A program made the translations under genes and the position numbers. From a virus, in IMG/VR virus record IMGVR_UViG_3300010384_000010: 47,522 nucleotides of DNA; one strand, 5' to 3'. Positions 3,683-27,394 of the stretch are shown here, piece after piece. The notes beneath the pieces were generated by a model, which saw only the letters and a list, made by a program, of their open reading frames with translations, was not told the DNA's origin and made no database searches. Each line of letters starts with the position of its first letter. The stretch's first letter is position 1.

Positions 3683-4167
3683 TGTGCCAGCGTGCCCCCT
3701 GCACGAACATAGGCGGTGATAAGCTCGTCGAAGGTGTGCACGGGCTGGTCGTACCGGCTCGGCGGGAACGAGGCCCAGCACCCGGCGAGGGTGGCAATGG
3801 CGTCGTGGATGTGGCCCTGCTTGATCAACGGCAGCGCGTGGCGCTCGCGAATCATCTCCAGCGCGTACCGGTCCTGGGACAGCGGGCTGAAGTCGGGCAA
3901 GCCCAGGTTCCGCCGGTAGTACGGCCAATAGCGGTGGAGAATCTGGTAGCGCCCGGCGGCCGTGCTGTCGTGCCGGGCGTTGTAGATATCCGGGTGGTCG
4001 GCGTAGGCGTAGAACAGCAGCGGCTTTTCCGGGGTCGCCCCAACCAGGACGTTGTACCCATCGTCCGACAGCGCGAGCAGCCCGGGGCCGATTTCGCTCC
4101 AGGCGATCGTGTCCAGGAATGCCAGCACGTTGCGGCCACCGGCCGCCTGTTCAGAAATTCGGGCCAT
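3679..4167 (-). CDS. Endolysin, lambda R-like lytic transglycosylase (GH104)
   Basis: 162 aa. It aligns by eye with lambda R: AFLDTIAWSE (catalytic Glu), GRYQIL, LGLPDFSP.SQD, and C-terminal ...AGGT. Confidence 0.85.
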   Translation of the reverse strand: MARISEQAAGGRNVLAFLDTIAWSEIGPGLLALSDDGYNVLVGATPEKPLLFYAYADHPDIYNARHDSTAAGRYQILHRYWPYYRRNLGLPDFSPLSQDRYALEMIRERHALPLIKQGHIHDAIATLAGCWASFPPSRYDQPVHTFDELITAYVRAGGTLAQ

Positions 4168-5642
4168 TATGCGCGCCTCAGTAGGTCTTCGGTGATCTTC
4201 AGCTTGCCCCGGCCCTCGACCAGCCGGTTGAAGGCGCGCGAGGAGGCGTCCACCTGGTCGTCATGCTTGCCGCTCGGGAACATGCGCATTTCGTCCAGGT
4301 ACGCCTGGTTCCACTCGCCTTCCACAATGTCCACGTTGCCCACGTTCACCTGGGCGGCCAGCGGCTCGGCACGCGTGATCTTGTCGCCGGACTCGGGCGA
4401 GGAGACCACCGAATAGCCGGCCAGCAGCTTGGTGAAGGACAGCACCTGGGATTTGCCCGCCTGACCCGGGTCCTGGGGCAGGTCGATCTTGACGCCCCGG
4501 CCGTCCATGCGGGCCGTGTTCTTCAGCATCTTCTCGACGTCCTCGGGTCCGCACCGGTCGCGCAGCGCGTGGGCGATGACGAAGCGACCCTCGGGGGTCT
4601 TGCCCAGGCGCACGCCGGCCGTGTAGTCGGGGTCCTTGCCGGGCTCGGGGACCGACGCGCCGAAGTCCCAGCCGCGAATCCACCGGGTGCCCTGGGGAAC
4701 GGCCGGGATCACGTTGACCTTGTTCACCTTGAACAGGTTGCCGCCCTCGGCCATGGGCCGCTGACGGTACTGGCCCGAGAAGGTGTAGGGCAGGGCCTCC
4801 TCCATCTTCCGCAGCTGCTCTAACGTGTGCTTGTGCGGCCACAGCGCGCGCTCGGTCGGCAGACCCTCGTCCTGGATCGCGTCGAGCGACAGGACCTCCC
4901 ACTCCTGGCCGTCACCCTCGTTCTGCAGCCAGCCGGCGAGGTCGGATTCGTGCAGGCGCTGCATGATCACGATGATGGGCGTGGTTTTGCTGTTGCGGCG
5001 GGACAGCAGCGTGGTCTTGAACCAGTCGATCACGCCCTGGCGGACGGTATCGGACCGCGCCTCGCTGGCCTTGTGCGGGTCGTCAATGATGATGGCGCCG
5101 CCGAAGCCTGGCCGCTCCTTGCCGGCGCCGTAGCCGGTCAGGGTGCCCTTGGTGCCGGTGGCGTAGACCTTACCGCCGCGAGTCGTGCGCCATTTGTGCT
5201 TGGCGGCGGTGTCACCCGAGACCTGGACATCGGGGAAGATGCGCTGGTAGGTCTCATTCTGCACCATCTCCAGGATCGCGGCCGTGTTGTCGCTGGCGAG
5301 CGAGGCGGAGTAGCTGCAGTAGATGAACTCCGAGTCCGGGTAGTGGCCCAGGCCGTAGCCGATGAAGCCCTCCGCAAACTCGGTCTTGGAGTAGCGCGGC
5401 GGGATGTTGATGATAAGATTCTGCAGCTCGCCCCGGAACACCCGGCCCAGGGCATCGGCCAGCTTCGGATGGTGCTCGGCCGGCACCCAAGAGAAATTCT
5501 TGCGCGCCATGAACATGAGGCGCTGGAAGAAGTAGAAATCCTCCCGGGCCCGCTCCGCCTCGGCCTCCTGCTTGCGCCGCAGCTGCTCGGCCTGGGCGGA
5601 CGCCAGCAGGAGCAGGCGGGCGCGGCGCATGGCGTTGCTCAT
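4167..5642 (-). CDS. terL: Terminase large subunit
   Basis: 491 aa. The ATPase half contains GAIIIDDPHK and VIMQRLHESD. The C-terminal half is nuclease-like, with GWDFG... and HDDQVDA. It is adjacent to the putative terS. Confidence 0.9.
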   Translation of the reverse strand: MSNAMRRARLLLLASAQAEQLRRKQEAEAERAREDFYFFQRLMFMARKNFSWVPAEHHPKLADALGRVFRGELQNLIINIPPRYSKTEFAEGFIGYGLGHYPDSEFIYCSYSASLASDNTAAILEMVQNETYQRIFPDVQVSGDTAAKHKWRTTRGGKVYATGTKGTLTGYGAGKERPGFGGAIIIDDPHKASEARSDTVRQGVIDWFKTTLLSRRNSKTTPIIVIMQRLHESDLAGWLQNEGDGQEWEVLSLDAIQDEGLPTERALWPHKHTLEQLRKMEEALPYTFSGQYRQRPMAEGGNLFKVNKVNVIPAVPQGTRWIRGWDFGASVPEPGKDPDYTAGVRLGKTPEGRFVIAHALRDRCGPEDVEKMLKNTARMDGRGVKIDLPQDPGQAGKSQVLSFTKLLAGYSVVSSPESGDKITRAEPLAAQVNVGNVDIVEGEWNQAYLDEMRMFPSGKHDDQVDASSRAFNRLVEGRGKLKITEDLLRRA

Positions 5643-6271
5643 TCGACGGTCTTTGTCAGCTCGCGCTGCTGCTGGGCGACCATCTCGGCCAGCTCCTCGT
5701 CACCCAAGCCCGCGAACGCAGCCCCCGGGGCGTTGAGCGGGGAGCCGCCGGCACCCGTGATTTCTTGCCGGCGCCTGTAGCGGTCGTTGTTGCCTTGGAG
5801 GAAGAACATGAGCAGCTGGTCCGAGTACTTCGTGACCTGGGAGACCTCAACGCCCTGGTAGAACACGGGCTCCTCCACGCCGTTGATGGCGCGGTCCATG
5901 CCCACGGTCTCCAGCGTCTCGATGCCGGCCGCGCGGGCCTCGTCAAACGCCTGGGCGAAGTCGTCGTCATTCCGGCGGCGGAAGTAGGTGTACTCGCGCG
6001 GGATACCCACAGCCTCGGCGGCGGCCTTCACGTTGCCGGTCCGGGCCAGCACTTGCAGGAATCCCTCCCATTTCTCGTCGGGGTACAAGCTGCGCGGGTT
6101 GCCACGCATCAGGTTGACGAAGGGCAACTCACTGGCCGGGGTCCGGGCGACCGGCTTATCCCGGTTCGGGTGGGGCTTGCGCTCGTAGCCGCCGGCCTTC
6201 TGCTCGGCGGCCTCGGCACCCTTGCCCGGCTTCTTAGCCACGGGCGAAGTGCAGGCCGGACTGGAGCGCAT
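5639..6271 (-). CDS. terS: Terminase small subunit (putative)
   Basis: 4-nt overlap with terL. HTH-like segment TGNVKAAAEAVGIPREYTYFRRRNDDDF. ORF 5639..6484 trimmed to the ATG at 6269-6271. GTG 6239-6241 is an alternative start. Confidence 0.55.
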   Translation of the reverse strand: MRSSPACTSPVAKKPGKGAEAAEQKAGGYERKPHPNRDKPVARTPASELPFVNLMRGNPRSLYPDEKWEGFLQVLARTGNVKAAAEAVGIPREYTYFRRRNDDDFAQAFDEARAAGIETLETVGMDRAINGVEEPVFYQGVEVSQVTKYSDQLLMFFLQGNNDRYRRRQEITGAGGSPLNAPGAAFAGLGDEELAEMVAQQQRELTKTVE

Positions 6272-6380
6272 GGGCGATGGCCAGGGCCAGCGGGTTGAGG
6301 CGGAAGGGATAGCGGGTCGAGGACATTTGGCAGTGGCTCCGCGCACGTTGGGCTGTAAAACTACGGGACGAGCAGGGCGA

Positions 6381-6410
6381 ATCGTAGCACCCGGGGGCGT
6401 CGTCACGCAA
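6381..6410 (-). promoter_or_regulatory. Putative extended -10 promoter for the terS/terL operon
   Basis: The minus strand reads TTGCGT-18 nt-(TGc)TACGAT. The -10 is at 6381..6386 and the -35 at 6405..6410. Confidence 0.4.
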
Positions 6411-6517
6411 CCACCACGCGAGGGTTGATTTGGCACCCGGGGGATGATACCGCCGCACGCCCAGGCGCGCACAGGCCCCCGCATGTCTACGAGCGCGCGC
6501 TCTCGTGCGCGTTTTCA

Positions 6518-7015
6518 CGCGCCCCCACGCGAGGAGCACCCCAAGAACCGCGACGCGACGCGGCTTTTCCGCCCTTTTTAGGTGCCGGGCTGGCTGCCCT
6601 GGCCTGTTGTAGGTGTGATAGGGTAAGGGTGCGGATATTACAACGCCCTGAGCCCGCGTCAGACGGGCGCTCGTCCGGGGTTGTTGTAGTGTGATAATAT
6701 CGAGGGCGTGCTCTTCTCTCGCTCGCGCTTCTCTTCTCTCCGATACTACAACACTACAACACGAATCTCCCTTATCGGGCGCGCGCTCGCGCTCGCGTAG
6801 CAATGGGCGTGCCAGCCCCCGACGAGTGGCGTCGTGGCGCGGCTCGCGGCCCCTACAAAGCCCCTCGCTAGCAGCGGTCCTCTGGCCACCCCCAGCGTGT
6901 TGTAGTCTCGGGTGGCTTACCCTATCACACCTACAACACGTCTCAGGCCCCCGTGAGACCCAAAGTGGGCTGCGGACCCCCCGAGCAGCGGGCCACTACC
7001 CATTCACGCCGTATC
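6518..7015. repeat. Non-coding module A, paralog of module B (26893..27375)
   Basis: Blocks are shared with B in the same order: CGCGCCCCCACGCGAG, TTTTNTAGGNGCCGGGCTG, TGTTGTAGGNGTGATAGGGT, TACAACGCCCTGAGCCCGCG, GGTTGTTGTAGTGTGATA, CTACAACA, CCCTTATCGGGCGC, AGCGGTCC, CGTGTTGTAGTCTC, CAACACG, GCCGTATC. No reading frame is conserved. Confidence 0.8.
6605..6938. repeat. 23-bp perfect inverted repeat inside module A (arms 6605..6627 and 6916..6938)
   Basis: tgttgtaggtgtgatagggtaag versus cttaccctatcacacctacaaca. The arms are exact reverse complements, 288 bp apart. Confidence 0.9.
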
Positions 7016-7248
7016 GGCCGTTCAGCTCCCGTTAGGCTGGAGGGCCGGTGCTCGATCAGGTAGCCCTGCCCGGCGACGAAGCTCAGCGTGAAGCTGGCCG
7101 CGCCACTCTGCAGGGCGGCCAGGACTGCGGGCAGCAGGGGGCTGTCCAGGGTATGGAAGGACCGGCCCGTCGCGTGGAAGCGGCGGATGGCCTCCTCCAC
7201 GGCGGGTCCGTGGGCCAGCGGGAGGCCCTCGTCGGGCGTGTAGCGCAT
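6943..7248 (-). CDS. Hypothetical protein (last gene of the early block)
   Basis: ORF 6943..7320 trimmed to the ATG at 7246-7248, which is preceded by AGGAG. The 3' end runs into module A, so the extent is uncertain. Confidence 0.45.
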   Translation of the reverse strand: MRYTPDEGLPLAHGPAVEEAIRRFHATGRSFHTLDSPLLPAVLAALQSGAASFTLSFVAGQGYLIEHRPSSLTGAERPIRREWVVARCSGGPQPTLGLTGA

Positions 7249-7981: not shown

Positions 7982-8521
7982 TCATTCCTCGGGCTGGGGC
8001 GGGGTGGGTTGGTACTTGGCGAGCCTTTCGCGGGCCAGTGACAGCGCCGGGTCGCTGCGCTCCATCACGTCCAGCGGGTCACACTCGCCGCCAAGGTCGC
8101 GGATGCGGTCCCGTGCAGCCTCAAGCGTGTTGACATACGCGCGGTACAGGCCCCGATATCCGTCTAGCAGATCCCTCCACCCCTCCGCCTGCGCGTTGCC
8201 GAGGGCGCGGGTGATGGCTTGCTCCAGTTCGTCGGCACACGTTTCGTAGGCGAACGACTTGCCCGAGTAGTATTCGCCGCCGGCGAGGCTGTCGCGGTTC
8301 TCGCGCTCGCGCCATGCGCTTACAAGCGAGGTCAAAGCCCCCCCATCCACCGCCTGCGCAGGCTGGGTGAGGTGGGCGACTTGCCATGCCTTCCACCCGC
8401 CAGCCACATCGCGGTAGACGTACTCGCCTTTACCGTCCACGACGAAATGATTTGGCTCCCAACCGTGCTTCAGCATGGCCGTTTCAAAAGCATTGCGCTC
8501 GCTATCCATCTTCTCGTCCAT
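7982..8521 (-). CDS. Hypothetical protein
   Basis: ORF 7982..8635 trimmed to the ATG at 8519-8521 (MDEKMDSERNAFETAMLKHGW...). 179 aa. Confidence 0.6.
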   Translation of the reverse strand: MDEKMDSERNAFETAMLKHGWEPNHFVVDGKGEYVYRDVAGGWKAWQVAHLTQPAQAVDGGALTSLVSAWRERENRDSLAGGEYYSGKSFAYETCADELEQAITRALGNAQAEGWRDLLDGYRGLYRAYVNTLEAARDRIRDLGGECDPLDVMERSDPALSLARERLAKYQPTPPQPEE

Positions 8522-8522
8522 C

Positions 8523-9299
8523 TCACTCCCCTTCTGCGGGTTGGGTGGGCTTGCGGGTGCATGCGCAATGCTTATTCGCCACGGAGTCGTAGGCGATGAC
8601 TTCGCCGCAGGCACGACAGAACGGCGACCCATCACCCTCGGGCGCGGACGGGGCGGCGGCTTCGATTACTGCGTTCCACCAGTCGGACGTATCGCCGTGA
8701 ATCTGATGCGCTGCCTGCATGGCGAACGTCGGCTCGCGCGGCACCAGCACGTAACCATCCGGCACCCCGGCGGGCGAGGCTGCCGGGGTGGGGAGGTTGG
8801 CGAACTCGTTGCGCACGACTTCTTCGATCCACTTGCGCGTTGCCTTGCCGCACTTGGTCGGCGGGTTCATGCCGTCCTCGGCCATCGCGTTGTGCAGCTC
8901 CGTCCATGCCACCTTGCAAGCCATACCGAACGCCTTGGGCTGCTCACCCCGGCCCTGCGCGGCGAGGGCGGCTTCAAGGGCGGCGCGCATGGCTACGGGG
9001 TCGGTATACACCCCATCCTCCACCTTCGAGGCATTGAAGTAAGCCTCCCGCGCCTTCTCCACCATCTCATCCCCCACCCGCCCGCTGTCGGCGGACTGGC
9101 GCGGGGTGGCGGCGTAGGCGGTCAGCGCCTCGTCCAGGGCGGCTTCGCGGTCGGTCATGATTGCGAAATGTTCGGTCGGCTGGAAGCGCGGGCCCTTGTA
9201 TGCGATCCAGGGGTAGCAGCTCTCATCCACGGTGTAGCCGGCGGCTTTCGCCTGGGCCTTGGTCCGGGGACGGGCGGCCTGTGCGTCCGGGTGGCTCAT
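8523..9299 (-). CDS. Hypothetical protein with a C-terminal Cys cluster
   Basis: ORF 8523..9332 trimmed to the ATG at 9297-9299, which is preceded by AGGAGA. The C-terminus CRACGEVIAYDSVANKHCAC looks like a zinc ribbon. Confidence 0.6.
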   Translation of the reverse strand: MSHPDAQAARPRTKAQAKAAGYTVDESCYPWIAYKGPRFQPTEHFAIMTDREAALDEALTAYAATPRQSADSGRVGDEMVEKAREAYFNASKVEDGVYTDPVAMRAALEAALAAQGRGEQPKAFGMACKVAWTELHNAMAEDGMNPPTKCGKATRKWIEEVVRNEFANLPTPAASPAGVPDGYVLVPREPTFAMQAAHQIHGDTSDWWNAVIEAAAPSAPEGDGSPFCRACGEVIAYDSVANKHCACTRKPTQPAEGE

Positions 9300-9912: not shown

Positions 9913-10584
9913 TCACTGGCGAGTCTGGTTCCACGCCCGCATCACGGGCTCTTCGTAGCGCTGCAGCCGGTCGCCCAGGCACTGGTCCGCGTGGGACAGC
10001 AGCTTAGCCCCGGCCACGTACTTCTGCAGGTTCTTCTGGCGGACCACGGGCATCACGTGGTGCGTGTCGAGCCCGCGCCAGGCGAGATGGTCGCTGATCA
10101 TCGAGCGGTGGCACCGCCACCATTGGCATTCGCAGCAGAGCAGCGCGCAGCGTTTCTCGGTCAGCGCCCATTCGGCAATCAGCTCGGAGGCCGCGCGCAG
10201 GAAGCCCGGCGTGCTCATGAAGAAGCTGTAGTCGCGCAGCCCGGTGTTGGTCCAGCGGGGGCCGCCCCCCTCGCACCACGGATCGTTCAGGGCGATGCGC
10301 TGCTTGGGGAACTTGCGCCCCAGGTAGGGCCGGATGTCCACGCCGTGGGCGAGCATCTCCTCGGCCAGCGGCGCATGCTCCGGGAGCCAGCCGCCCAGCT
10401 GCGGGGCCCAGGCATAGCCGAAGCCTTCGGCCGGGAGCCACTGCTCCATGGCCTCGCGTTGGTACTGCGGCCAGCGACTGCCCGGGTGCGAGCGGGTGTC
10501 GACCACGGTATGGATGCCCGCCGCGCGCAGGAGGGCGGCGAAGTCCTGCTGGCTGTGGGTCGAATGGCCGATGGTCAGGATCAT
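9913..10584 (-). CDS. DUF488-family protein
   Basis: ORF trimmed to the ATG at 10582-10584. MILTIGHSTHSQQDFAALLRAAGIHTVVDTRSHPGSRWPQY matches the DUF488 N-terminal signature as I recall it. The Cys-rich segment LLCCECQWWRCHR is also typical. Confidence 0.55.
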   Translation of the reverse strand: MILTIGHSTHSQQDFAALLRAAGIHTVVDTRSHPGSRWPQYQREAMEQWLPAEGFGYAWAPQLGGWLPEHAPLAEEMLAHGVDIRPYLGRKFPKQRIALNDPWCEGGGPRWTNTGLRDYSFFMSTPGFLRAASELIAEWALTEKRCALLCCECQWWRCHRSMISDHLAWRGLDTHHVMPVVRQKNLQKYVAGAKLLSHADQCLGDRLQRYEEPVMRAWNQTRQ

Positions 10585-10820
10585 GTGCCTTCCCCCACGG
10601 GTGCCGGGTCCGATCCGGCCTCGATTGCGCGGATCAGCAGGGTGCGGACGCGCAGCTCGCGCTCCCGGGTGTCGCGGATGGCCTGGTCGCGAGCCGGGCA
10701 TGGCGGCAGCTGGGTGTTCATCCACACGTGGATGCCGGCGATGTGATTCAGCTCGCGCGTCAAGGCGTTCTCCACGATCTGGAGGTCCTCGCGCGCCATG
10801 CCTTCGAATGGGTTGCTCAT
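10581..10820 (-). CDS. Hypothetical protein
   Basis: 79 aa. The stop overlaps the DUF488 start (ATGA). Confidence 0.55.
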   Translation of the reverse strand: MSNPFEGMAREDLQIVENALTRELNHIAGIHVWMNTQLPPCPARDQAIRDTRERELRVRTLLIRAIEAGSDPAPVGEGT

Positions 10821-11302: not shown

Positions 11303-11536
11303 TCAGCCCCCCACCGAGATTTCGCTGCCCTGGGGGTCCCACACGCGGCCATTGTACGAGATGGTGGCGGCGGTCTTGCCCTGCTCGTCCATCACGTCCC
11401 CGCAGTCGTGGCTCATGGCGCTGGCGCCGTGGCCGCCAGCATCGCGGGCGGCGATAAATTTGGCGCGGGCCTCGGTGAGGGTGTCTGCGACAACGACGCG
11501 GCGGCGGCCGAAGGAAATGTCAACTGCGTATGCCAT
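11303..11536 (-). CDS. Hypothetical protein
   Basis: 77 aa. The ATG is preceded by the leader CCCCCATAGAGCATAGAGGACACTACC. Confidence 0.6.
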   Translation of the reverse strand: MAYAVDISFGRRRVVVADTLTEARAKFIAARDAGGHGASAMSHDCGDVMDEQGKTAATISYNGRVWDPQGSEISVGG

Positions 11537-11544
11537 GGTAGTGT

Positions 11545-11617
11545 CCTCTATGCTCTATGGGGGACCGGGCGGACCGGCCGTGGAGGAAATTAGACCACGG
11601 CCGGTGCTGTCGCGCAA
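11545..11617 (-). promoter_or_regulatory. Early promoter-leader unit (TTGCGC-17-TGg-TCTAAT) with the -10 inside a hairpin loop
   Basis: -10 at 11589..11594 and -35 at 11612..11617. Inverted repeat arms ggccgtgg (11576..11583) and ccacggcc (11595..11602). Motif cctctatgctctatggggg starts at 11545. Confidence 0.55.
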
Positions 11618-11935
11618 TTATTTTGTCAAGGTGTACTCGCGCTCGTTCCAGAATCCGCCGCACTTGGTGGCCCATGCATTGCCGTGCTTGATGTCAACTT
11701 CGTGGATCACATACCCGAGCTCCCGGGCCTTATGCACAACCTCATTCCAGAGCCGGAACTCGATCCAGGTGGGGTCAGTCTTGGGGCCGCTGGTGGCCCG
11801 ACCCCCGACCCTGACGCGTCCTCGTTCCGTCAGATCGGCAAAATATCTGGCCATGGGGGACAGGTCGTACCCGCGCAGCTTTGCCACCCGCCTATCCCGG
11901 GTGGCGATGTAGGACTGCAGGCGGGGGTCCATCAC
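11618..11935 (-). CDS. Hypothetical protein
   Basis: 105 aa (MMDPRLQSYIATRDRRVAKLRGYDLSPMARYF...). Confidence 0.6.
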   Translation of the reverse strand: MMDPRLQSYIATRDRRVAKLRGYDLSPMARYFADLTERGRVRVGGRATSGPKTDPTWIEFRLWNEVVHKARELGYVIHEVDIKHGNAWATKCGGFWNEREYTLTK

Positions 11936-12138
11936 CCCGCCGCCTTCACGATGGACTCACATACCCGGCAGTTTTGGCCGGCGAGCGAACGCTTCCACTC
12001 AACAACGCGGGCTGATACCTCCAGCTTGGCCGCCTCGACGTCCACGGCTTCGACCTTGAACGACTTGACGCGGGGAAGGCCGCAGCCGCAGATGGCGCAT
12101 TGGATGGTGGTCTTGGCTTTAAGGGTCGCGTTCATCAT
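11932..12138 (-). CDS. Small zinc-ribbon-like protein
   Basis: 68 aa with CAICGC...CRVC (two CxxC pairs). The ATG is preceded by the leader motif. Confidence 0.55.
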   Translation of the reverse strand: MMNATLKAKTTIQCAICGCGLPRVKSFKVEAVDVEAAKLEVSARVVEWKRSLAGQNCRVCESIVKAAG

Positions 12139-12143
12139 CGTGT

Positions 12144-12212
12144 CCTCTATGCTCTATGGGGGTCGGGTCTCGACCGTGGAGAAATTAAACCACGGCCGGG
12201 ACCCCCGCACAA
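12144..12212 (-). promoter_or_regulatory. Early promoter-leader unit (TTGTGC-17-TGg-TTTAAT) with the -10 inside a hairpin loop
   Basis: -10 at 12184..12189 and -35 at 12207..12212. Inverted repeat arms ccgtgg (12174..12179) and ccacgg (12190..12195). Motif starts at 12144. Confidence 0.55.
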
Positions 12213-12476
12213 TTATTTGTCAAAGGCCCGGAACAGGGCGGTCGCCTCTTGGGTCGCATTGTGGAACACCCCCACGCTGTACTCCAGCGAGTCTTTGGCG
12301 CGGCGCATGGCGCTCACGTAGTCGCCCCGGGTGAGCAGGAGGGAGGCGTCGTTCAGCGTCAGCTGGGCGCTGTCGGGCATGCTGCCCCGGGCCACGTGGG
12401 CGGCGGCCAGGCCGACGCAGCGCTCGGCTGCGGCCTTAGGCTCGTCGTAGGCGGGGGTCAGGTCGGAAGCGTTCAT
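12213..12476 (-). CDS. Hypothetical protein
   Basis: 87 aa. The ATG is preceded by CATAGAGCATAGAGGAATTAGCCC. Confidence 0.6.
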   Translation of the reverse strand: MNASDLTPAYDEPKAAAERCVGLAAAHVARGSMPDSAQLTLNDASLLLTRGDYVSAMRRAKDSLEYSVGVFHNATQEATALFRAFDK

Positions 12477-12485
12477 GGGCTAATT

Positions 12486-12554
12486 CCTCTATGCTCTATG
12501 GGGGCCGGGTCTCGACCGTGGAAAAATTGTACCACGGTCGGGGGTGCCGCACAA
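12486..12554 (-). promoter_or_regulatory. Early promoter-leader unit (TTGTGC-17-TGg-TACAAT) with the -10 inside a hairpin loop
   Basis: -10 at 12526..12531 and -35 at 12549..12554. Inverted repeat arms gaccgtgg (12514..12521) and ccacggtc (12532..12539). Motif starts at 12486. Confidence 0.55.
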
Positions 12555-12647
12555 TTATTTGTAGCGCTGTCGGTTACATGGCCTTGTCCTAATGGGGCGG
12601 GGCCGCACCGCGCGGAGACCCCAGGATAGCACCGGAAAGGCCCTCGA

Positions 12648-12932: not shown

Positions 12933-13669
12933 GCGCCCCGCCTCCGTTCCAGCTCCACCCGGGCGCAGTGCTTGGCATCCTCGCGCATGTCGGGCACCCC
13001 GGACATCCAGCGCAGGTAGTCGGCCGGGATCGTGTCCCAGGTCTGGCCCACATGCTTGCCGAGCGGGCAGCGGGGCAGGCGGGCCGGCTCGCGCGTCCAG
13101 GCGACCATCTCCGCGATCGCATTCTCGCGGGTCATCGTGAGCGTCATCTCGTCCAGGGCCCGCGACAGGATGCCGGCGGTCACCCGGGCATCGTGCAGGG
13201 CCGAGTGCGCCTCTTTGGCGCCGTTGCGCCCACGGCGCCCGATCTTGAGCCAGTAGCGCAGCCCCTCGTTGCTGTGGGAGGGAGCGTCGGGCCACAAGCG
13301 CAGGGCGGCCTTGTAGGTGCAAATCCAGGGCAGGTCGAGCAGGTCCTGCTCATCGCGCAGCACGCCGCGCTCATACTCGGCGTTGTGGGCAGCCAGGAGG
13401 ATCGAGCCCTCGCCGCCGTCCGACAGGAAGAGCTGCACTCGCAGCTCCGCCAGGGCGTCAATCCAGCTCGGCGCCCCCGCCAGGTCCTCCGGAATGATGT
13501 GGTGGACGGCCGAGACCTCGGGCGGCAGCTCGACGCCCTCGGGCAGGGCGACCAGCGTGTCCCAGCCGTACGCGGCCTCGTCGGGCGAGGCCAGGCCGAT
13601 TTCCACGGCGTGCGCGGTCTGCGCGTCGCGGCGGTCGGTTTCGAAGTCGAGCGTGAAGATGAAGTGCAT
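12929..13669 (-). CDS. DnaQ/ExoX-like 3'-5' exonuclease with a C-terminal DUF3820-like tail
   Basis: DEDDh motifs are present: FTLDFETD, AAHNAEYERGVL and AHSALHDARV. The C-terminus reads CPLGKHVGQTWDTIPADYLRWM. Trimmed to the ATG at 13667-13669. Confidence 0.75.
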   Translation of the reverse strand: MHFIFTLDFETDRRDAQTAHAVEIGLASPDEAAYGWDTLVALPEGVELPPEVSAVHHIIPEDLAGAPSWIDALAELRVQLFLSDGGEGSILLAAHNAEYERGVLRDEQDLLDLPWICTYKAALRLWPDAPSHSNEGLRYWLKIGRRGRNGAKEAHSALHDARVTAGILSRALDEMTLTMTRENAIAEMVAWTREPARLPRCPLGKHVGQTWDTIPADYLRWMSGVPDMREDAKHCARVELERRRGA

Positions 13670-14025
13670 CAATCGTTCCCCTTTACGAATGGTGAGCGCA
13701 GGCGGCCGTCCCGCCAGCACTGTTTAATGTTCTCCGACTGCGAAACCGGCTCCAGATGGTTCGGGTTGCAGCAGAGGGTGTTGTTGCAGCGGTGAGCGGT
13801 CACGTGGTGGCGCAGGAATCGGTGTCCCCACGCCACGGCCGCGAGCCAGTGGGACTTGAATTTGAAGCCGAAGATGTATGCCTGGCCGTACCGGCCATCG
13901 GTCGACTGGGCCCAATTCCAGCACCCGGTCTCCAGGTCGAGCGTGCAGCGCTCCAGGACGTATTCCCGGGCCTCGGCCAGGACCAGCGCGAGGAACAGGC
14001 ACGCGGCGGTCTCGCGATCACCCAT
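13669..14025 (-). CDS. HNH endonuclease
   Basis: AHRCNNTLCCNPNHLEPVSQSENI matches the HNH_3-type signature. Trimmed to the ATG at 14023-14025. 118 aa. Confidence 0.7.
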   Translation of the reverse strand: MGDRETAACLFLALVLAEAREYVLERCTLDLETGCWNWAQSTDGRYGQAYIFGFKFKSHWLAAVAWGHRFLRHHVTAHRCNNTLCCNPNHLEPVSQSENIKQCWRDGRLRSPFVKGND

Positions 14026-14272
14026 CGATCGCCCCCCACGTGAAGGGTAGGGCGAGCTGCGGGTCGGGGATGTCGCGCACGGCGAAGCTGCGGGGAGGGG
14101 CACCCAGCGTGGCGTTCCGGGTCTCGCGGCTCTGGCGGATGTACGCCTCGCGGTTGCGGAACGTCTCGCGGAGCCACTGGTCATCCATCACGCGCACCCC
14201 GAACCGGGGCGGCGGAACCTGGATTTCGTCGGTCATCGTCTCAGCCATGAATCCTAAGAACCGCTTTAACAT
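14018..14272 (-). CDS. Hypothetical protein
   Basis: ORF 14018..14458 trimmed to the ATG at 14270-14272, which directly follows CATAGAGGATAGAGAG. 84 aa. Confidence 0.45.
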   Translation of the reverse strand: MLKRFLGFMAETMTDEIQVPPPRFGVRVMDDQWLRETFRNREAYIRQSRETRNATLGAPPRSFAVRDIPDPQLALPFTWGAIDG

Positions 14273-14760: not shown

Positions 14761-15421
14761 CGGCGGGGGCCTCCCCCACAGTGCAGTCCGGGCCGGCGAC
14801 GAAGTACAGGCGCAGGCCGCGCTTGGCACAGGCCCGACCCACCTCGTCGGCGAAGTGGCCGTCACCGTCCTCGCGCACCAGCCACACGGCCGAGCCCGCC
14901 GGGATGCCGTGCAGGTTGTCCGGGTGCGTGGTCGTGTGACAGGACGCCCGGTGGTGGCCGCGCACCTGGGCGGCGCGCGCCGGGTTGCGGCAGACGATCG
15001 CGTGGGGGGTCGGAATAGCCGGCACTGGGGCCACGTCGCCCTGGAGCAGCCAGTGGTGGTCGGTGAGCGCCTCACCCGCCCGCTCACCCGCGATCCCCGG
15101 GGCGAGCCGCTCCACCATCATCCCACGCAACAGGAGCAGGTAGAGGATGGCATCGTCCACCCGCCCGGTGATCGGCTCGGCGTACTCGCGGGCCTCGCCC
15201 CGGGCGGAGTCATTCACCCAAGTGGTGACCGAAAACATGTGCTTGTCCAGGGCGACCATGAGCACCTGCTCGCGGGTCAGGCCCAGGCGCGCGGCGGAGG
15301 CTTCGAAGTTGGCAAACTGGCTCTGTGCGCGCTGGGTGTACTCCTCGCCCTTGGCGGCGGTCAGCGCCAACAGGCGCTCGTGCAGCTCGTTGATGCTTTG
15401 CTTGAATTCGTGCTTGTTCAT
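14753..15421 (-). CDS. DUF1599-like (all-alpha, nucleotide-modification-associated) domain fused to an unknown ~110-aa C-terminal domain
   Basis: KGEEYTQRAQSQFANFEASAARLGL...LDKHMFSV...DDAILYLLLL matches the DUF1599 pattern as I recall it. The start overlaps the datZ stop. Trimmed to the ATG at 15419-15421. Confidence 0.45.
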   Translation of the reverse strand: MNKHEFKQSINELHERLLALTAAKGEEYTQRAQSQFANFEASAARLGLTREQVLMVALDKHMFSVTTWVNDSARGEAREYAEPITGRVDDAILYLLLLRGMMVERLAPGIAGERAGEALTDHHWLLQGDVAPVPAIPTPHAIVCRNPARAAQVRGHHRASCHTTTHPDNLHGIPAGSAVWLVREDGDGHFADEVGRACAKRGLRLYFVAGPDCTVGEAPADA

Positions 15422-15999
15422 GCCTGCGGCCCCGTGAGCTTGCCGGTGAGAGTGTAGACCGCGATTTGGGTCTCGTATCCCAATTCGACGGCGGTGTATA
15501 AGTCGTGCGCCTTGAACAGGTCGGCGATCGCACGGGACAGCGCCTGCCGCAGGCCATCGTAGACTTGCCGCGCATGGGCCCCGACGCCGAAGTCCCGAAT
15601 CCATCCGCACGCCTCGGCGAGGTCGGCCACCTTGACGATGTAGCCGGCCAGGGGGCATTCCCCATCGGGGGACACGCAGAAGGCCAGGTCCGAAATGCTC
15701 TGGTCCACCGCGTGCGCCGTTCGGTCGAGCAGTTGCCGCCCGCCTTCGCCTAGCATGCGCTTGGCGTTGCTGGGCATGTCACCCGTCACTACTTCGTGCA
15801 GGTCGTGGACGCGCGCCCACTCCATCGCGTTCAGCGTGATCGAGTTGCCCCAGTCCAGCAGGCCCAGGACCCGGAGCAGCTCTTCGGTGATCAGGCCCAC
15901 CCGGTACATGTGTTCGGCGATGGTCTGCTCGCGCGAGGTGGCCACGATGTGCCAGCGGCGCACGTGACCCGCCCGCATTTTTTGGTCAAGCGTCAACAT
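15418..15999 (-). CDS. datZ: HD-domain dATP triphosphohydrolase (DatZ-like)
   Basis: HD-superfamily motifs are present: RRWH, IAEHMYRV, VHDLHEVVTGD and KVADL. It lies directly downstream of mazZ and purZ. Confidence 0.7.
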   Translation of the reverse strand: MLTLDQKMRAGHVRRWHIVATSREQTIAEHMYRVGLITEELLRVLGLLDWGNSITLNAMEWARVHDLHEVVTGDMPSNAKRMLGEGGRQLLDRTAHAVDQSISDLAFCVSPDGECPLAGYIVKVADLAEACGWIRDFGVGAHARQVYDGLRQALSRAIADLFKAHDLYTAVELGYETQIAVYTLTGKLTGPQA

Positions 16000-16321
16000 G
16001 GGAGAACACCCCAGAAGGGAGCTGCGCCCACTGGCGCCGCCGGTTGATGAAAAGTTTGGCCAGGACGGCGTCCGCCACGTCCACGCCGTTCATGGAGGCA
16101 AGGTCGAGCAGCATGATGAAGACGTCGCCCCACTCCAGCGGGTCGGCCGGGCTCTTGATGACCTCGCCCAGCTCTTCGAACAGCTTGAGCCAGGCGGCGG
16201 CGGGCTGGCGGGCCGGGAACGTCTCGGAGGCCCACCCGTGGACGCGCGCCTGAAGGGCCGCCACAGTGATAGCGCCCCCCTCCTCGGAGGGCGCCCCGGG
16301 CGTGGGGAGGGACCCGTTCAT
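15986..16321 (-). CDS. mazZ: MazG-like NTP pyrophosphohydrolase (MazZ-like)
   Basis: LKLFEELGEVIK...EWGDVFIMLLDLA is a MazG-type acidic helix pair. ATG 16319-16321 overlaps the purZ TGA (ATGA). Confidence 0.6.
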   Translation of the reverse strand: MNGSLPTPGAPSEEGGAITVAALQARVHGWASETFPARQPAAAWLKLFEELGEVIKSPADPLEWGDVFIMLLDLASMNGVDVADAVLAKLFINRRRQWAQLPSGVFSHVDA

Positions 16322-17472
16322 GCCAGCTGCCTCGCGCGGTCCGTATACTGGCGGTCCGCCCACTGGTCAAACGGAGGGAGGACGGCGGCAACGTCGGGGT
16401 GGGTGCCGAGCCACGGATACTCGGCCACATCGCCGGCCGCCGGGCCGAAGCCCAGGTAGGTCATCGTGCCGCCCGCCCGCGAAACGGTCAGGTCGGTGCG
16501 GCGGATGAACTGGCGGAACTTGTCGATCGGCACGTAGTTGCAGAAGTTGAGAAAGACATCGTCCACGCCACAGGCGCGCACGGCCTCGGCCAGCTGGACT
16601 TGGGACATGGTGAAGATGCGGCGGGGCAGCTTCGTGACGGTGGTCAGCTCGGGCTCGCGGCCCAGGTCGCGCAGCCAGTCCAGTTCGACCTGGTCCGGGT
16701 AGCACGGGCCGGAGAAGCCCACCTGGTTGCCGGCCTCGTCGAAGCGGTTCGCGACGCGGATCGGGTAGGTGCGCGCGCACCCCACGACCCGGAGCTGCCG
16801 GGCGGCACGCGCGGGGATGCCCACGTCCGCCAGGACTTGGTGGGTGCTCACGTCGCGCGAGGTGCAGTAGGGGTAGAAGCCATGATAGAGCGAGAGGCTG
16901 TAGCCCTGGGCGCCCTCGATCTGGACCTCCCGGGCCACGTCCCAGGCGTTGGCGTAGGTCTCGGCGCTGGCGACCGCGAAGGCCAGGCCGGCGGCCTCGA
17001 TGTCCGGATGCACACCGCGCAGGGCGGACCACGCGGTGTTGTGCTTGTCGGGGTCGCGGCGGATGCGCTCGATCATCGCCTCGCCCACGCCCTTTTTCGT
17101 GCTGCCGATCTTGGTCATCGGGCCGGCTTCCAGGTCGCGGTGTTCTTGGGTGATAACCGCCGCGTGCGGGTGGATGAGGATGTCCACGTCGCGCAAGTGG
17201 TCGCGGCACGCCTCCAGCTCGGCGCGCAGGGCGGCCGGGTTGAGCAGGGAGCCGGGGCCGATCAGCAGGCGGCGCAGGTTCGGGGAGACCACGCCGTTGG
17301 CCAGCATCGTGTGGATGTAGCTGCGGCCGGCACCGTCGATGAAGGTGTGGCCCGCGTTGGCGGCCCAGGCGGTGGCCACGGTATCGGGGCGCCGGGTCTG
17401 CGCGAGATAGCCCGCGATCAGGCCCTTGCCGGTGGAGCCATATTGCAGGTCGATGATGAGGTTGCCTTTCAT
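16318..17472 (-). CDS. purZ: PurZ, N6-succino-2-amino-2'-deoxyadenylate synthase (PurA homologue)
   Basis: Trimmed to MKGNLIIDLQYGSTGKGLIAGYLA. The P-loop reads GSTGKG instead of the PurA GDEGKG. The blocks GAQGYSLSL, FYPYCTSRD, ELTTVTK, VFLNFCNY and YLGFGP match PurZ of known Z-genome phages as I recall them. Confidence 0.85.
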   Translation of the reverse strand: MKGNLIIDLQYGSTGKGLIAGYLAQTRRPDTVATAWAANAGHTFIDGAGRSYIHTMLANGVVSPNLRRLLIGPGSLLNPAALRAELEACRDHLRDVDILIHPHAAVITQEHRDLEAGPMTKIGSTKKGVGEAMIERIRRDPDKHNTAWSALRGVHPDIEAAGLAFAVASAETYANAWDVAREVQIEGAQGYSLSLYHGFYPYCTSRDVSTHQVLADVGIPARAARQLRVVGCARTYPIRVANRFDEAGNQVGFSGPCYPDQVELDWLRDLGREPELTTVTKLPRRIFTMSQVQLAEAVRACGVDDVFLNFCNYVPIDKFRQFIRRTDLTVSRAGGTMTYLGFGPAAGDVAEYPWLGTHPDVAAVLPPFDQWADRQYTDRARQLA

Positions 17473-18062: not shown

Positions 18063-19919
18063 TCAGGCCGATGCAATGTGCCAGTTTTCGCCCACACCCT
18101 GGTCCGTGCGGATCGGCACGCGGAGCGAGATGCGGTCCTCGGGGCCAAACGCGGTCAAGATGCGGTTGACCTCGTCCTTCAGATGGTCGCAGCCCTCGGG
18201 CAGCATCCAGTCAAACTCGTCGTGCACGTTCAGGACCAGCCGCGCCCCGGCCTCGCGGATGTGGTCGGGCTGCGATTCGAAGAACTGGTCCGCCTCCACG
18301 AGCTTCACCTTCAGCGCGTCGGCCGCCGTGCCCTGGAAGATCAGCCCGCCGGCCTTGTACACAAACATGCCGCGCGGGAACCGGATGCGGCGGCCCAGGA
18401 TGGTGCACACGTGGCCCCGGGACTTGGCCACGGCCGACGCGTCCTTGAGCAGGTCCCGCACGCCGGGGATGTTGGCGTGGTACTTTTCAAACACCGCCTC
18501 CGCCTCGGGGCCAGGCTTGACCCAGGTCCCGCCGCGCCCGTTGGGCTCGATGGTGAACGGCAGGCCCATCTCCTGGGCGAGCTTGCCCTGGCCCATGCCG
18601 AACACCAGCCCCAGGTTGATCTGCTTGGCGTTGGGGTCACCCGCGAACCGGGCGGAGCGGGGCAGGCCGGTGAGCCCGGCGGCCAGCGAGTGGAAGTCGG
18701 TGTCGGGGTCCTTGTTGTACATCTCCAGAATTTCGGCGTTCCGCACATAGTGGGAGAACACCCGGAAGTCCATCTGCGCCCAGTCGTTGCAGACCCATCG
18801 GCAGCCCTGGTACGGCACGAACACCGCGCGCACGATGGCCGCCATGTCCTTGTCGCGCTTCGGAATCTGCTGGAGCGCCGGGGCGTTGACGGACAGGCGG
18901 CCGGTGCCGGTCCCCACGTCGCCCTCGCTCTTCGTCTGGTTGATGTTGGCGTGGATGAGGCCGCCGTGGTGGTTGCCCAGCACGTGGCCGCGCAGGAACG
19001 TGTCCCGGGCCTTGATCATTTTGCGCAGGCCCAGGATCTTCGCCGCCGCCGGGTGCTTCATGCGGCGCAGACAGTCCGCGTCGATCGATGCCTTGGCCCC
19101 GCTGTCGGAGGGGTCGGCAATCGTGCCATCGTTCAGCACAAAAATCTTCGTGCCGTCCGCCGTCCGCTCCTCGCGCGGTTCGAACAGCTTGTGGATGCTG
19201 CCGCTGGGGTTGGGGTTGACCGGAAATCCGGCCAGCCGGTCCAGCTCGCGCTGCTCCTGGCGCACCTTCACGTCCAGGGCATTGGCCGCGCGCTCGGCGG
19301 CCCCGATGTCCACCCGGACGCCGTACTGCTCCATCCGTACGATGACGGGCAGCAGCTGCATCTCCAGCTCGTGGACGCGCTCCAGGCCCTGTTTCTCGAT
19401 CTGCTCCTGCTGCCACATCCACAGGCGCAGGGCTGCGCGGGTGTCCTGCTTGGCGTAGCGCCCGACGATGCTTGCCGGGGCGCGGGGCAGGTTGGGCATC
19501 TGCGCGTGCCGGGTCGGCTTGCCGCCGAACAGGTCCGCCAGCTCCTGGTAGATGGAGGAGTCCTTGCCGATCCCCACGCAATCCTTGGCGACCGAGTCCA
19601 GGTCATAGGTGAGCCGGTGCTCATCAATCAGCGCCGCGCGGATCATTGTACACTCGGTGCGGTCGTTCGGCAGGATGATTCCGGCCTCGCGCGAGAAGTG
19701 CCAGTCGAACTTTATATGGTGGTTGACGACCTTGCGCACGCGGGGCATCTCCTCGCGCAGCCAGTCGATGACCTCGGGCTCGCGCCGGACGTCCCAGTAG
19801 TGATCCTGCTCGGGCGTGGAGAGGGCGACCCCGAAGATTTTGTCCTGCCACCAGGTCAGCCCGGTGGTCTCCAGGTCGTACGCGATGACCGGATAGTCGG
19901 CGATGCGGGGGAAGCTCAC
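18063..19919 (-). CDS. dpoZ: Family-A DNA polymerase with 3'-5' exonuclease domain (DpoZ-type candidate)
   Basis: Exonuclease motifs IAYDLETTGL and NHHIKFDWHF. Polymerase motif A NDWAQMDFRVFSHY, motif B PNAKQINLGLVFGMGQGKLA and motif C LNVHDEFDW. It lies next to the purZ cluster. Confidence 0.8.
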   Translation of the reverse strand: MSFPRIADYPVIAYDLETTGLTWWQDKIFGVALSTPEQDHYWDVRREPEVIDWLREEMPRVRKVVNHHIKFDWHFSREAGIILPNDRTECTMIRAALIDEHRLTYDLDSVAKDCVGIGKDSSIYQELADLFGGKPTRHAQMPNLPRAPASIVGRYAKQDTRAALRLWMWQQEQIEKQGLERVHELEMQLLPVIVRMEQYGVRVDIGAAERAANALDVKVRQEQRELDRLAGFPVNPNPSGSIHKLFEPREERTADGTKIFVLNDGTIADPSDSGAKASIDADCLRRMKHPAAAKILGLRKMIKARDTFLRGHVLGNHHGGLIHANINQTKSEGDVGTGTGRLSVNAPALQQIPKRDKDMAAIVRAVFVPYQGCRWVCNDWAQMDFRVFSHYVRNAEILEMYNKDPDTDFHSLAAGLTGLPRSARFAGDPNAKQINLGLVFGMGQGKLAQEMGLPFTIEPNGRGGTWVKPGPEAEAVFEKYHANIPGVRDLLKDASAVAKSRGHVCTILGRRIRFPRGMFVYKAGGLIFQGTAADALKVKLVEADQFFESQPDHIREAGARLVLNVHDEFDWMLPEGCDHLKDEVNRILTAFGPEDRISLRVPIRTDQGVGENWHIASA

Positions 19920-22959: not shown

Positions 22960-22963
22960 TTGT

Positions 22964-22979
22964 CTCTATCCTCTATCGG
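22964..22979 (-). promoter_or_regulatory. Leader motif copy (GATAGAGGATAGAGACAA-ATG) in a 23-nt intergenic gap
   Basis: The plus strand reads ctctatcctctatcgg, between the stop at 22983 and the start at 22959. Confidence 0.5.
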
Positions 22980-22982
22980 GTC

Positions 22983-26743: not shown

Positions 26744-26764
26744 TGGAACGGTCCCCTTCGGTTT

Positions 26765-26848
26765 CTCTATGCTCTATCGGGTCGATGCCGCCCGGCCACT
26801 GGCCGGGGATGGATACATGGTAGCACACCGTGAAGACGCCGTGAAGAC
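26765..26848 (-). promoter_or_regulatory. Promoter-leader unit upstream of PrimPol, with two 11-bp-phased TCTTCACG repeats over the -35
   Basis: The minus strand reads TCTTCACGGCGTCTTCACGGTGTGCTACCAT. -10 at 26817..26822. Repeats at 26828..26837 and 26839..26848. Leader hairpin CCCGGCC-AGT-GGCCGGG. Motif at 26765..26780. Confidence 0.45.
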
Positions 26849-26892
26849 CGCGTGACGGCTGGGTGAGGCACCCCGCGCGCTCGCGCGAATCG

Positions 26893-27375: not shown

Positions 27376-27394
27376 ACCGAGTTGTGAGACCGGG

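Follow-up and report, generated by a model that had tools for sequence, protein, structure and literature searches.

Paired promoter-ended arrays of 8-bp boxes in a metagenomic relative of the Z-genome siphoviruses

The metagenomic virus record IMGVR_UViG_3300010384_000010 (47,522 nt, analysed over its whole length and referred to here as the window) contains two gene-free intervals of about 0.5 kb that carry the same ordered series of sequence blocks, one (module A) ahead of the terS gene and the other (module B) ahead of the gene coding for the PrimPol primase-polymerase. The original prediction, made from the letters of the window, did not recognise the element and offered four explanations: (i) nut- or put-like signals in the sense RNA, (ii) arrays of sites for a phage DNA-binding protein, (iii) genes for structured non-coding RNAs and (iv) boundaries of recombination or module exchange. 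The locus therefore raises the question of whether the modules act as DNA or as RNA, and of what they do at these two positions. On the evidence presented below, they are on balance probably arrays of protein-binding sites that act at the DNA level and control the heads of two operons.

Two paralogous modules and their box arrays

All convincing open reading frames (ORFs) of the window, as judged by third-position GC, lie on the minus strand, and this strand is taken as the sense strand when the modules are described. Comparison of A with B by blastn returned a 101-nt high-scoring segment pair (76% identity, E=9.5e-21) and three further ones, of which two were collinear (E 1e-4) and one, on opposite strands (E 4.5e-6), corresponded to a box-rich inverted repeat; no comparable match to either module was found elsewhere in the window. 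The heptamer GTTGTAG occurred 19 times in the window against 1.8 expected, a count that none of 100 shuffles reached, and 11 of the 19 copies were located inside the two modules. A scan of codon-position GC periodicity over the window gave 6281–7131 and 26791–27521 as the two longest stretches without a coding signal. Taken together, the blastn comparison, the heptamer count and the periodicity scan confirm the collinear, paralogous pair that had been proposed. The eleven blocks on which that proposal was built were all present in A and B, in identical order and each at the position assigned to it; the modules are in direct orientation and bracket the 19.9-kb early block that starts with PrimPol, and calling its bordering genes the first and the last early gene appears reasonable.

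The limits of the modules required correction. The gap at A, described as 6272–6942, is 6327–6942, since an ORF of 30 aa (6326–6234) overlaps the GTG start of terS (6241). The modules themselves had been placed at 6518–7015 and 26893–27375, and homology was indeed found there, but it runs past these ends into a promoter (A 6381–6410, B 26817–26845); a terminator-like hairpin of B (27335–27375) forms the final 41 nt within the limit first given.

Both modules are built from an 8-bp box, CTATCACA, and its variant CTACAACA, present in tandem and inverted copies with conserved palindromic blocks in between. Each module of the window holds 9–10 boxes (at most one mismatch) in three groups, in which one or more inverted boxes are followed 15–65 nt further on by one or more direct boxes, and the two promoter-proximal groups close with a contiguous tandem pair, CTATCAC(A/G)(N0-2)CTACAACA. 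Tandem copies are contiguous at an 8-bp period, and the GC palindromes between the box groups are GGGAGCCTCTCCG, GCGCCCGATAAG, CCCGTCYGACGCGGG, AAAACGGG and CCCGTGGGGGCG. TATCAC and TACAAC units interchange among relatives, which indicates that the TGTTGTAG and GTGATAGGGT blocks, listed separately in the original prediction, are two variants of one box.

Relatives were collected by a protein search with PrimPol, which gave a graded series from 89% down to about 60% identity. Homologues of B were obtained from five of them (contigs L207, L210, L211, L212 and L219) and homologues of A from two contigs, L213 by a terS look-up and L226 by a gapped box pattern. The search for terS homologues found almost none, and they were scarce among the PrimPol relatives, which is why A could be followed only through one terS look-up and a gapped DNA pattern. 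Stretches of 10 kb retrieved around PurZ ended shortly before A in three relatives, and the window's own PurZ had no record. L226 overlaps contig L205 at 100% identity and is therefore the same phage as L210. A direct blastn search with A against 50,697 phage records, the route suggested at the outset, found no match, and the homologues came instead from PrimPol, terS and the gapped pattern. Window-specific 17–20-mers had no exact matches in IMG/VR, where a looser 14-base pattern gave only chance single matches; the gapped box pattern found nothing in GTDB genomes and, in JGI metagenomes, only a microsatellite and two unrelated low-GC contigs besides L226.

The same module layout was present in all clade relatives recovered. 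The order of inverted and tandem boxes was identical in A, B, L207, L213, L226, L210, L211, L219 and L212, and the distance from one tandem pair to the other was 76 nt in A, B and the modules of L207 (B), L213 (A) and L210 (B), 75 nt in those of L211 and L219 (both B) and 68 nt in that of L212 (B), so that box order and pair spacing hold across the clade while the spacers between boxes diverge. The boxes are of the TATCAC and TACAAC types in the window, L207 and L210/L226, and are all TATCAC in the single module (B) recovered from each of L211, L219 and L212.

Module A occupies the whole non-coding region from the last early gene to the 30-aa ORF and terS (6327–6942, minus strand); it has no codon periodicity, and its orthologues are L213:1835-2456 and L226:5075-5662. 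Read in the sense direction, it begins with a first convergent box pair, HP1 (6897–6940), whose inverted composite box (6919–6938) is the reverse complement of 6605–6624 and whose arrangement is orthologous in L213 and L226. Block 1 (6770–6783, sense GCGCCCGATAAGGG), homologous to TGTCGCCnGGCGACA and CCGGGCGAYATA in other lineages, is followed by two contiguous inverted boxes (6746–6761, plus strand; sense TGTTGTAGTGTTGTAG, 8-bp period) and by the distal tandem pair (6680–6696, minus strand; sense TATCACACTACAACAAC), 76 nt upstream of the proximal one. Between the two pairs lie block 2 (6648–6676, sense GCGCCCGTCTGACGCGGGCTCAGGGC), which is a small GC palindrome kept throughout the phage group and present as the same block in SH-Ab 15497 and phage 53, and a single imperfect inverted box (6640–6647, plus strand; sense GTTGTAA) that faces the proximal pair. 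The proximal tandem pair (6605–6624, minus strand; sense ACCCTATCACACCTACAACA) consists of box a and box b and occurs in all clade modules. Block 4 (6518–6546, sense ...CTCGCGTGGGGGCGCG), between the arrays and the promoter, is conserved in A, B, L207 and L213, and related CCCRCGTG..AAAAGAG blocks were found in PMBT28 and SH-Ab. The A promoter (6381–6410, minus strand) is sigma-70-like with an extended −10: −35 TTGCGT (6410–6405), an 18-nt spacer and TGC TACGAT (−10 at 6386–6381), with a match to GTGCTACGAT.

Module B fills the non-coding region from the gene 27910–27395 to PrimPol (26744–27394, minus strand) and has orthologues in L207, L210, L211, L212 and L219. Its GC-rich terminator-like hairpin (27335–27375, minus strand) lacks a U-run and closes the upstream transcription unit; the equivalent hairpin of L207 shows a compensatory G-C to A-T change, and the A module of L226 has a canonical hairpin with a T-run at the equivalent place. 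The hairpin is followed by HP1 (27293–27327, CGTGTTGTAG...CTGCAACACG on the plus strand), block 0 (27267–27279, sense GGGAGCCTCTCCG), which is conserved in the clade and inverted in PMBT28, block 1 (27131–27144, sense GCGCCCGATAAGGG), the inverted box or boxes (27110–27124, plus strand; sense TGTTGTTGTTGTAG), the distal tandem pair (27046–27064, minus strand; sense ACCCTATCACACTACAACA), block 2 (27010–27040), a single inverted box (27002–27008, plus strand) facing the proximal tandem pair (26969–26988, minus strand; sense ACCCTATCACGCCTACAACA), and block 4 (26893–26923). The B promoter (26817–26845, minus strand) combines −35 TTCACG (26845–26840), a 17-nt spacer and TGC TACCAT (−10 at 26822–26817), and its position is kept in all five orthologues; a leader motif, ATAGAGCATAGAG (26767–26779, minus strand), stands directly before the PrimPol ribosome-binding site.

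An extended −10-type match was found at the same place, the 3' end, in every module read, namely the eight clade modules, L226, both modules of PMBT28 and of SH-Ab 15497, and module 1 of PSA28, so that the repeated sites are tied to a promoter throughout. The motif GTGNTWNNAT occurs seven times in the window, six of them on the minus strand.

Joint replacement of the boxes in related phages

The nearest cultured relatives by PrimPol, at 37–41% amino acid identity, are Salmonella phage PMBT28, Pseudomonas phage PSA28 and the Acinetobacter SH-Ab 15497 group, and each of them carries two modules. In PMBT28, module 1 (20677–21128) is upstream of PrimPol and module 2 (43541–44009) opens the final gene block ahead of terS, with 2 kb and five genes separating it from that gene; the box is (A/C/G)TGGAACG, in three contiguous copies at an 8-bp period followed by two inverted copies at a 12-bp period. 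PSA28 has the same box in module 1 (8265–8545) and module 2 (31154–31600). The box of SH-Ab 15497 is GAGCAACC, with module 1 at 20773–21226 and module 2, directly upstream of terS, at 42942–43420. In its close relative phage 53 the box is GAG[A/T]AACC in both module 1 (about 4421–4890, upstream of PrimPol) and module 2 (within 26200–26750), and the boxes of the two Acinetobacter phages differ at one position in all copies. The highest box density of each genome is in its two modules.

In each lineage the box sequence has thus been switched in both modules together, which implies a trans-acting, phage-encoded reader of the boxes. The binding protein can be approached directly by genetics through the natural box variants of near-identical phages (SH-Ab 15497 versus phage 53), and what had been an odd metagenomic repeat pair becomes a defined, conserved and testable cis-element in the culturable phages SH-Ab 15497, phage 53, PMBT28 and PSA28. 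Practical uses would include the engineering of Z-genome phages or dZ-DNA production systems and the annotation of two 'empty' 0.5-kb gaps in this phage group.

More distant IMG/VR relatives have arrays of other heptamers upstream of PrimPol: TTGTAAT (11 copies), TTGTACA, TGTAGCG and CCGTACA. At least five copies of a heptamer were found in 13 of 78 PrimPol-upstream regions and in 9 of 924 control windows. Enrichment of TATCAC was absent in IMG/VR PrimPol relatives of 48% identity or less, which have boxes of their own instead.

Literature searches found no description of the paired module, and nothing on transcription organisation or replication start in Z-genome siphoviruses of the PurZ/DpoZ type. 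A paired, promoter-ended module with lineage-specific 8-bp boxes, common to the PurZ/PrimPol siphovirus group including cultured phages, is new. As kinds of element, repeated protein-binding boxes in arrays and duplicated origins or operator regions are already known, and the modules represent no new RNA or mobile-element class.

DNA-level action and rival explanations

In SH-Ab 15497 the cores of the two modules match each other over 233 nt (70% identity, E=1e-27) on opposite strands, and in phage 53 they do so over 199 nt (71% identity, E=1e-24), again on opposite strands, while all genes of both phages lie on one strand. An RNA element of the sense strand would not survive such mutual inversion. 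The boxes, moreover, are upstream of each module's own promoter. A nut- or put-like antitermination or processing signal in the sense transcript, or independent genes for structured RNAs, would suit the position of the modules at the passage from one operon to the next, where each opens with a terminator-like hairpin, as well as a few G-U-compatible substitutions on the sense strand and the folding of A, which gave z = −4.2 on both strands. However, this score arises from a single long-range inverted repeat of 23 nt without a counterpart in B, and B folded no better than its shuffles (z = −0.7 and +0.1 on the two strands). Aligning eight cores for RNAalifold, in line with the covariation analysis originally suggested, gave −14.7 kcal/mol over 265 columns with a covariation term of only −0.81 kcal/mol, and the only 'compensatory' pairs came from the joint TACAAC/TATCAC switch in both arms. 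When the boxes were held fixed and the rest was shuffled, 16 box-pair 'hairpins' had a mean z of −0.37 (range −2.8 to +1.8), suggesting no selected pairing beyond the boxes. Rfam returned no matches at gathering thresholds, all E-value matches being at least 25 bits below the gathering score, and a scan for tRNA and tmRNA found none. A single 7–8-mer serves every 'stem' of a genome, which RNA folding does not require, direct repeats occur as contiguous triples, and the arms are unequal in copy number and period; these properties fit protein-binding repeats, not helices. The modules are most likely DNA-level elements, not RNA. Explanations (i) and (iii) are accordingly disfavoured, and we regard any RNA role as extremely unlikely, while the tandem and inverted boxes, their lineage-specific replacement and the cores found in either orientation favour explanation (ii).

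A different use of the same symmetry would be the extrusion of facing boxes as DNA hairpins or cruciforms, for example as priming signals for the AEP PrimPol like those of RSF1010, ssiA/ssiB and RepB'. Convergent box pairs able to form stems of 7–11 bp are present in every module, a change of box type affects the two arms alike (UA to GC, alignment columns 43/134 and 178/212), RepB' is a fold match of PrimPol (E=2e-4), an inverted core would be tolerable because both strands can form hairpins, and the long-range inverted repeat of A-type modules is kept in L226 with one compensatory change. On the other hand, the box-preserving shuffles gave no pairing beyond the boxes, L210, L212 and L219 have kept the tandem boxes but no longer have pairing at the third box pair (HP3), and the loops, of 15 to more than 60 nt, are not conserved. 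The arms are also asymmetric (periods of 8 bp versus 12 bp in PMBT28 and PSA28; a single box opposite two or three) and the tandem copies are contiguous at 8 bp, which is an ill fit for a hairpin and usual for protein-binding repeats, and hairpins would have no role for the contiguous triple direct repeats. As the explanation of the modules, we consider such signals improbable.

From the arrays and their joint replacement we infer that a protein binds the boxes. In the mechanism that we propose, a hairpin at the start of each module would end the upstream transcription unit, and it would be followed by a 350–450-bp array of some 8–10 boxes made up of contiguous tandem pairs, facing inverted copies and three to five short GC palindromes between them, and by a sigma-70-type extended −10 promoter at the module end that would fire into the next operon. 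The B promoter would feed PrimPol and the replication and Z-base genes, and the A promoter the 30-aa ORF, terS, terL and the virion genes. The boxes of A and B would be occupied by a single DNA-binding protein, phage-encoded and sequence-specific, and a large nucleoprotein complex built at each module would coordinate both operon heads.

A temporal switch acting on both promoters is the function that we prefer, and an origin-type role, alone or in addition, is about equally likely; the two are not mutually exclusive. In favour of the switch, each module forms a terminator-array-promoter unit at the head of an operon, neither module has an AT-rich unwinding element, and L226 inherited module A and its promoter along with the early region but has unrelated genes in place of terS and terL downstream. 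The boxes could also be iterons of paired replication origins, alone or besides promoter control, an explanation that overlaps with the preferred one and that, as an account of the modules, seems to us possible though doubtful. In this case B, beside PrimPol and the helicase, would be the primary origin and A, comparable to P4 crr or SPP1 oriR, a second copy for late firing or for arresting forks near the packaging genes, with the promoters giving transcriptional activation. B adjoins PrimPol in every relative examined (A does not), and a swap of the packaging module leaves A beside the replication region; box arrays recur upstream of PrimPol in distant relatives, where they are iteron-like with A/T-rich spacers in the AT-rich L022, the one relative showing such tracts, and several short repeats in a fixed arrangement are what iterons show. 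Two features of PrimPol point the same way: its C-terminal domain may resemble initiator helicases and winged-helix binders, at non-significant scores, and within that domain the putative recognition helix varies most when lineages with unlike boxes are compared. Against paired origins, the lowest GC content over 30 nt is 0.40 in A and 0.47 in B (B has 73% GC overall), so that neither holds an AT-rich unwinding element, and no 30-nt window of 0.33 GC or less exists genome-wide; GC skew has no inflection at A or B; and the C-terminal Foldseek matches are not significant, with PrimPol 97% identical and its helix identical in SH-Ab 15497 and phage 53 despite the box difference.

A two-copy precedent is given by SPP1, a lytic siphovirus with one-strand transcription, in which oriL and oriR have a similar direct-repeat organisation, are bound by gp38 and lie about 13 kb apart, one region accompanying the replication genes and the other within a long late intergenic region; these origins have an AT-rich unwinding element, oriL is inside gene 38, and oriR has been proposed as a fork barrier (PMC6316719). 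The window resembles SPP1 in its one-strand transcription and in its two separated, similar repeat regions, one of them by the replication genes. It differs in that its modules have 65–73% GC and no AT-rich unwinding element, end in a promoter and hold inverted as well as direct boxes, and their origin role is only proposed. Joining both functions, one may imagine a group-wide bipartite control system of Z-genome siphoviruses, in which one fast-evolving box binder would act on both modules, possibly bridging them, and would couple the start of Z-DNA replication (B) to the opening of the late/packaging operon (A). Inverted-box arrays, through distortion by the protein or through cruciforms, would there take the place of an AT-rich unwinding element, which could not work because Z:T pairs are as strong as G:C pairs. 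We put this forward as a speculative and rather unlikely combination.

Module exchange, explanation (iv), describes A well and leaves the box arrays unexplained. In L226 module A is retained, next to a homologous last early gene (39% identical protein, E=5e-13), and conservation with the window ends just past the A −10 element; the genes at the terS and terL positions (L226:5663-7793 versus 4167–6241 of the window) have no detectable similarity, although the PrimPol of L226 is 78% identical. Directly after the A promoter the packaging module has been cleanly exchanged, and we attribute the breakpoint to A belonging functionally to the early/replication block, as a consequence of its function rather than the function itself. 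That the blocks persist merely as homology patches for early/late exchange, without a regulatory role, would agree with this exchange, with the low identity of the gene upstream of A and with the scarcity of terS homologues among PrimPol relatives; it explains neither the ordered arrays, their joint lineage-specific replacement and the constant 76-nt spacing nor the internal copy B, whose flanks are homologous on both sides (upstream gene 52%, E=2e-46; PrimPol 78%), and direct repeats 20 kb apart are a deletion hazard rather than a benefit. Mere linkers are, in our judgement, very unlikely. TerS proteins bind arrays of short repeats, such as lambda cosB and SPP1 pac, and both in the window and in SH-Ab 15497 A lies directly ahead of terS, as would suit terminase recognition sites of the pac or cos type. 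The same boxes are, however, found in B, 20 kb off beside PrimPol, L226 keeps the A boxes with non-homologous terS and terL, and the second module of PMBT28 is 2 kb and five genes away from terS, so that this is the least likely of the explanations considered here. An origin as a miniature inverted-repeat transposable element or transposon was rejected, since both modules are syntenic and ancient across lineages.

Several observations weigh against DNA-level protein-binding arrays at operon heads, the explanation that we prefer. A distance of 125–400 bp separates the boxes from the −35 downstream of them, which is long for an ordinary activator or repressor of sigma-70 promoters; the nearest tandem pair of B is about 125 bp away, the core of SH-Ab 15497 module 2 is about 190 bp from its promoter and inverted, and no sites overlap the −35/−10 elements or lie within about 100 bp of them, as those of an operator would. 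A consensus promoter/terminator scan at a 9-of-12 threshold reported no promoter, A and B scoring 8 of 12, so that the promoter calls rest on comparative conservation. The inverted pairs that come with the boxes may contribute as hairpins or cruciforms through their 7–11-bp stems, and the 23-nt inverted repeat of A has been retained in L226. No helix-turn-helix (HTH) or ribbon-helix-helix (RHH) domain was found with Pfam and PHROGs in about 30 early ORFs, many of the small ones being uncharacterised. Finally, the heptamer enrichment upstream of PrimPol is in part a general intergenic property, because the control windows were mostly coding.

Known systems offer partial parallels. In temperate phage lambda, OL and OR consist of 17-bp palindromic operators that overlap divergent promoters at their −35 and −10 elements. 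They are likewise two paralogous site arrays on either side of a gene block, at which one protein, with long-range cooperation, governs two promoters, and the lambda half-site TATCACCGC resembles box a; the window differs in having 8-bp boxes well upstream of co-directional promoters in an apparently virulent phage, and no repressor gene was found among its early ORFs with Pfam and PHROGs. RHH proteins such as omega of pSM19035 (WATCACW) and ParR on parC of R1 act on arrays in plasmid partition and copy control, and these contiguous 7–11-bp direct or inverted repeats upstream of promoters, cooperatively bound, are similar to the modules. Box a (TATCAC[A/G]) fits WATCACW, but the box sequence is wholly different in sister lineages, so the likeness is probably coincidental, and no RHH gene was detected in the early ORFs of the window by the same searches. 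The two low-GC contigs found with the gapped pattern (ERZ777306, 89 and 118 kb, 37–38% GC) carry TCTATCACA box arrays at L224:3450-3560 and L225:2490-2600, with three contiguous direct copies and inverted ones in an arrangement like that of the modules; they probably represent a different replicon or mobile element that uses a WATCACW-like repeat.

In P4, ori and crr contain the same octamer in both orientations, which is recognised by the C-terminal winged-helix domain of the alpha primase-helicase. Two cis regions several kb apart with a shared octamer in both orientations are also what the window has; alpha, however, is a Toprim primase fused to a helicase, whereas the AEP PrimPol and the SNF2 helicase of the window are separate genes, the C-terminal matches of PrimPol are non-significant, and SH-Ab 15497 and phage 53 differ in their boxes without a matching change in PrimPol. 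HK022 put and lambda nut are strand-specific RNA elements of 15–70 nt downstream of promoters; they too are two paralogous sites at the entry to two operons, but the modules of the window are about 600 bp long, lie mostly upstream of promoters, tolerate inversion and give no RNA-structure signal. DnaA boxes and IHF, LexA and sigma-54 motifs, compared by inspection with their consensuses, were rejected, as the boxes do not fit them.

Candidate box-binding proteins and genome setting

PrimPol (25169–26743, minus strand), the first gene after B, was modelled with AlphaFold (pLDDT 88.5). In the model its AEP domain matches the CAPP Prim-Pol (E=7e-12) besides RepB', and its C-terminal 205 residues form helix/beta-hairpin units. 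A Foldseek search with this C-terminal part gave nothing significant (no E of 0.001 or below), the best matches being winged-helix DNA binders and the initiator helicases SCCmec Cch and SaPIbov1 Rep, the latter two at E 0.04–0.1 over about 85 columns with an rmsd of 3.6–3.9 Å. The variable putative recognition helix is DLWF[RK]ASR[AS]MGV. Because it is unchanged between SH-Ab 15497 and phage 53, whose boxes differ, PrimPol is a weakened candidate for the box binder.

Several small early proteins are far more divergent than PrimPol between these two phages. Among them, an ORF of 65 aa between PrimPol and the SNF2 helicase (22818–23015 in SH-Ab 15497, L221, and 6479–6670 in phage 53, L227) is 50% identical, with flanking genes at 97% and 90%, and is a candidate specificity factor. 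The 171-aa protein encoded upstream of B (27395–27910, minus strand) has an SH3-like N-terminus, a K/A/P-rich linker, a conserved C-terminal ...HLNPGMQRMNLGN.IRGA motif and an ATAGAC-G-ATAGAG leader of its own; it is 52% identical in L210 (L210:1860-2423, E=2e-46), and no Pfam or PDB sequence match was found. It is possibly a DNA-binding protein and a second candidate for the box binder.

Bases 1–55 of the window are repeated exactly at 47468–47522, which indicates a circular assembly with a true genome length of 47,467 bp; the GC content of the whole genome is 67%. In the sense direction, module B is followed by PrimPol, the SNF2 helicase, Pam3 gp32–34-like proteins, a UvrD helicase and family-A DNA polymerase (18063–19919, minus strand), the last upstream of the Z-base cluster (15418–17472, minus strand). 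This gene set is complete: PurZ, an adenylosuccinate-synthetase homologue (17472–16318), MazZ (PF04447; 16363–15986) and a DatZ-like HD hydrolase (15999–15418), all on the minus strand. An exonuclease and many small ORFs lead on to module A, after which come the 30-aa ORF, terS, terL, the virion genes (wrapping the circle) with a tail fibre, and two unknown genes before module B is reached again. The PurZ/MazZ/DatZ cluster identifies the window as a relative of the 2-aminoadenine (Z-genome) siphoviruses, and its phage very probably replaces adenine by 2-aminoadenine. If so, the A/T-containing boxes and −10 elements would consist of Z/T in virion DNA. The early genes also include a weak HNH/His-Me endonuclease-like ORF (13669–14184, minus strand) and a DUF488 protein (9913–10725, minus strand).

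The 30-aa ORF between the A promoter and terS (6234–6326, minus strand; MSSTRYPFRLNPLALAIAHALQSGLHFARG) has a GGAG ribosome-binding site and overlaps the terS start by 8 nt. In L213, the closest relative, 23 of its 30 residues are identical, with mostly synonymous changes in the DNA.

A leader motif, ATAGAG[C/G]ATAG(AGGA), stands a few bases before the start codons of early genes in ten exact copies and one copy with a mismatch (27996), the first coordinates on the minus strand being 7873, 11558, 12157, 12499, 14287, 17707, 21370, 22976, 23323, 26777 and 27996. All copies are in the sense orientation and between 7.8 and 28 kb, and 22 matches were found at up to two mismatches against 6.8 expected. 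Related TATAGAG or GAGATA-N-GAGATA leaders are present in PMBT28, SH-Ab 15497 and IMG/VR relatives, and the motif resembles the 'start-associated sequences' of cluster K mycobacteriophages. Three repeat cassettes of about 80–95 nt, up to 88% identical, precede small ORFs at 11527–11623, 12126–12220 and 12468–12562 (minus strand). In each, a −35 region of the AATAATTGTGCG type is combined with an extended −10, which is GTGGTTTAAT, GTGGTACAAT or GTGGTCTAAT, and with a hairpin and a ATAGAGCATAGAGGA leader; the cassettes are probably the strong early promoters, and they recall the promoter/stem-loop cassettes of T4-type phages.

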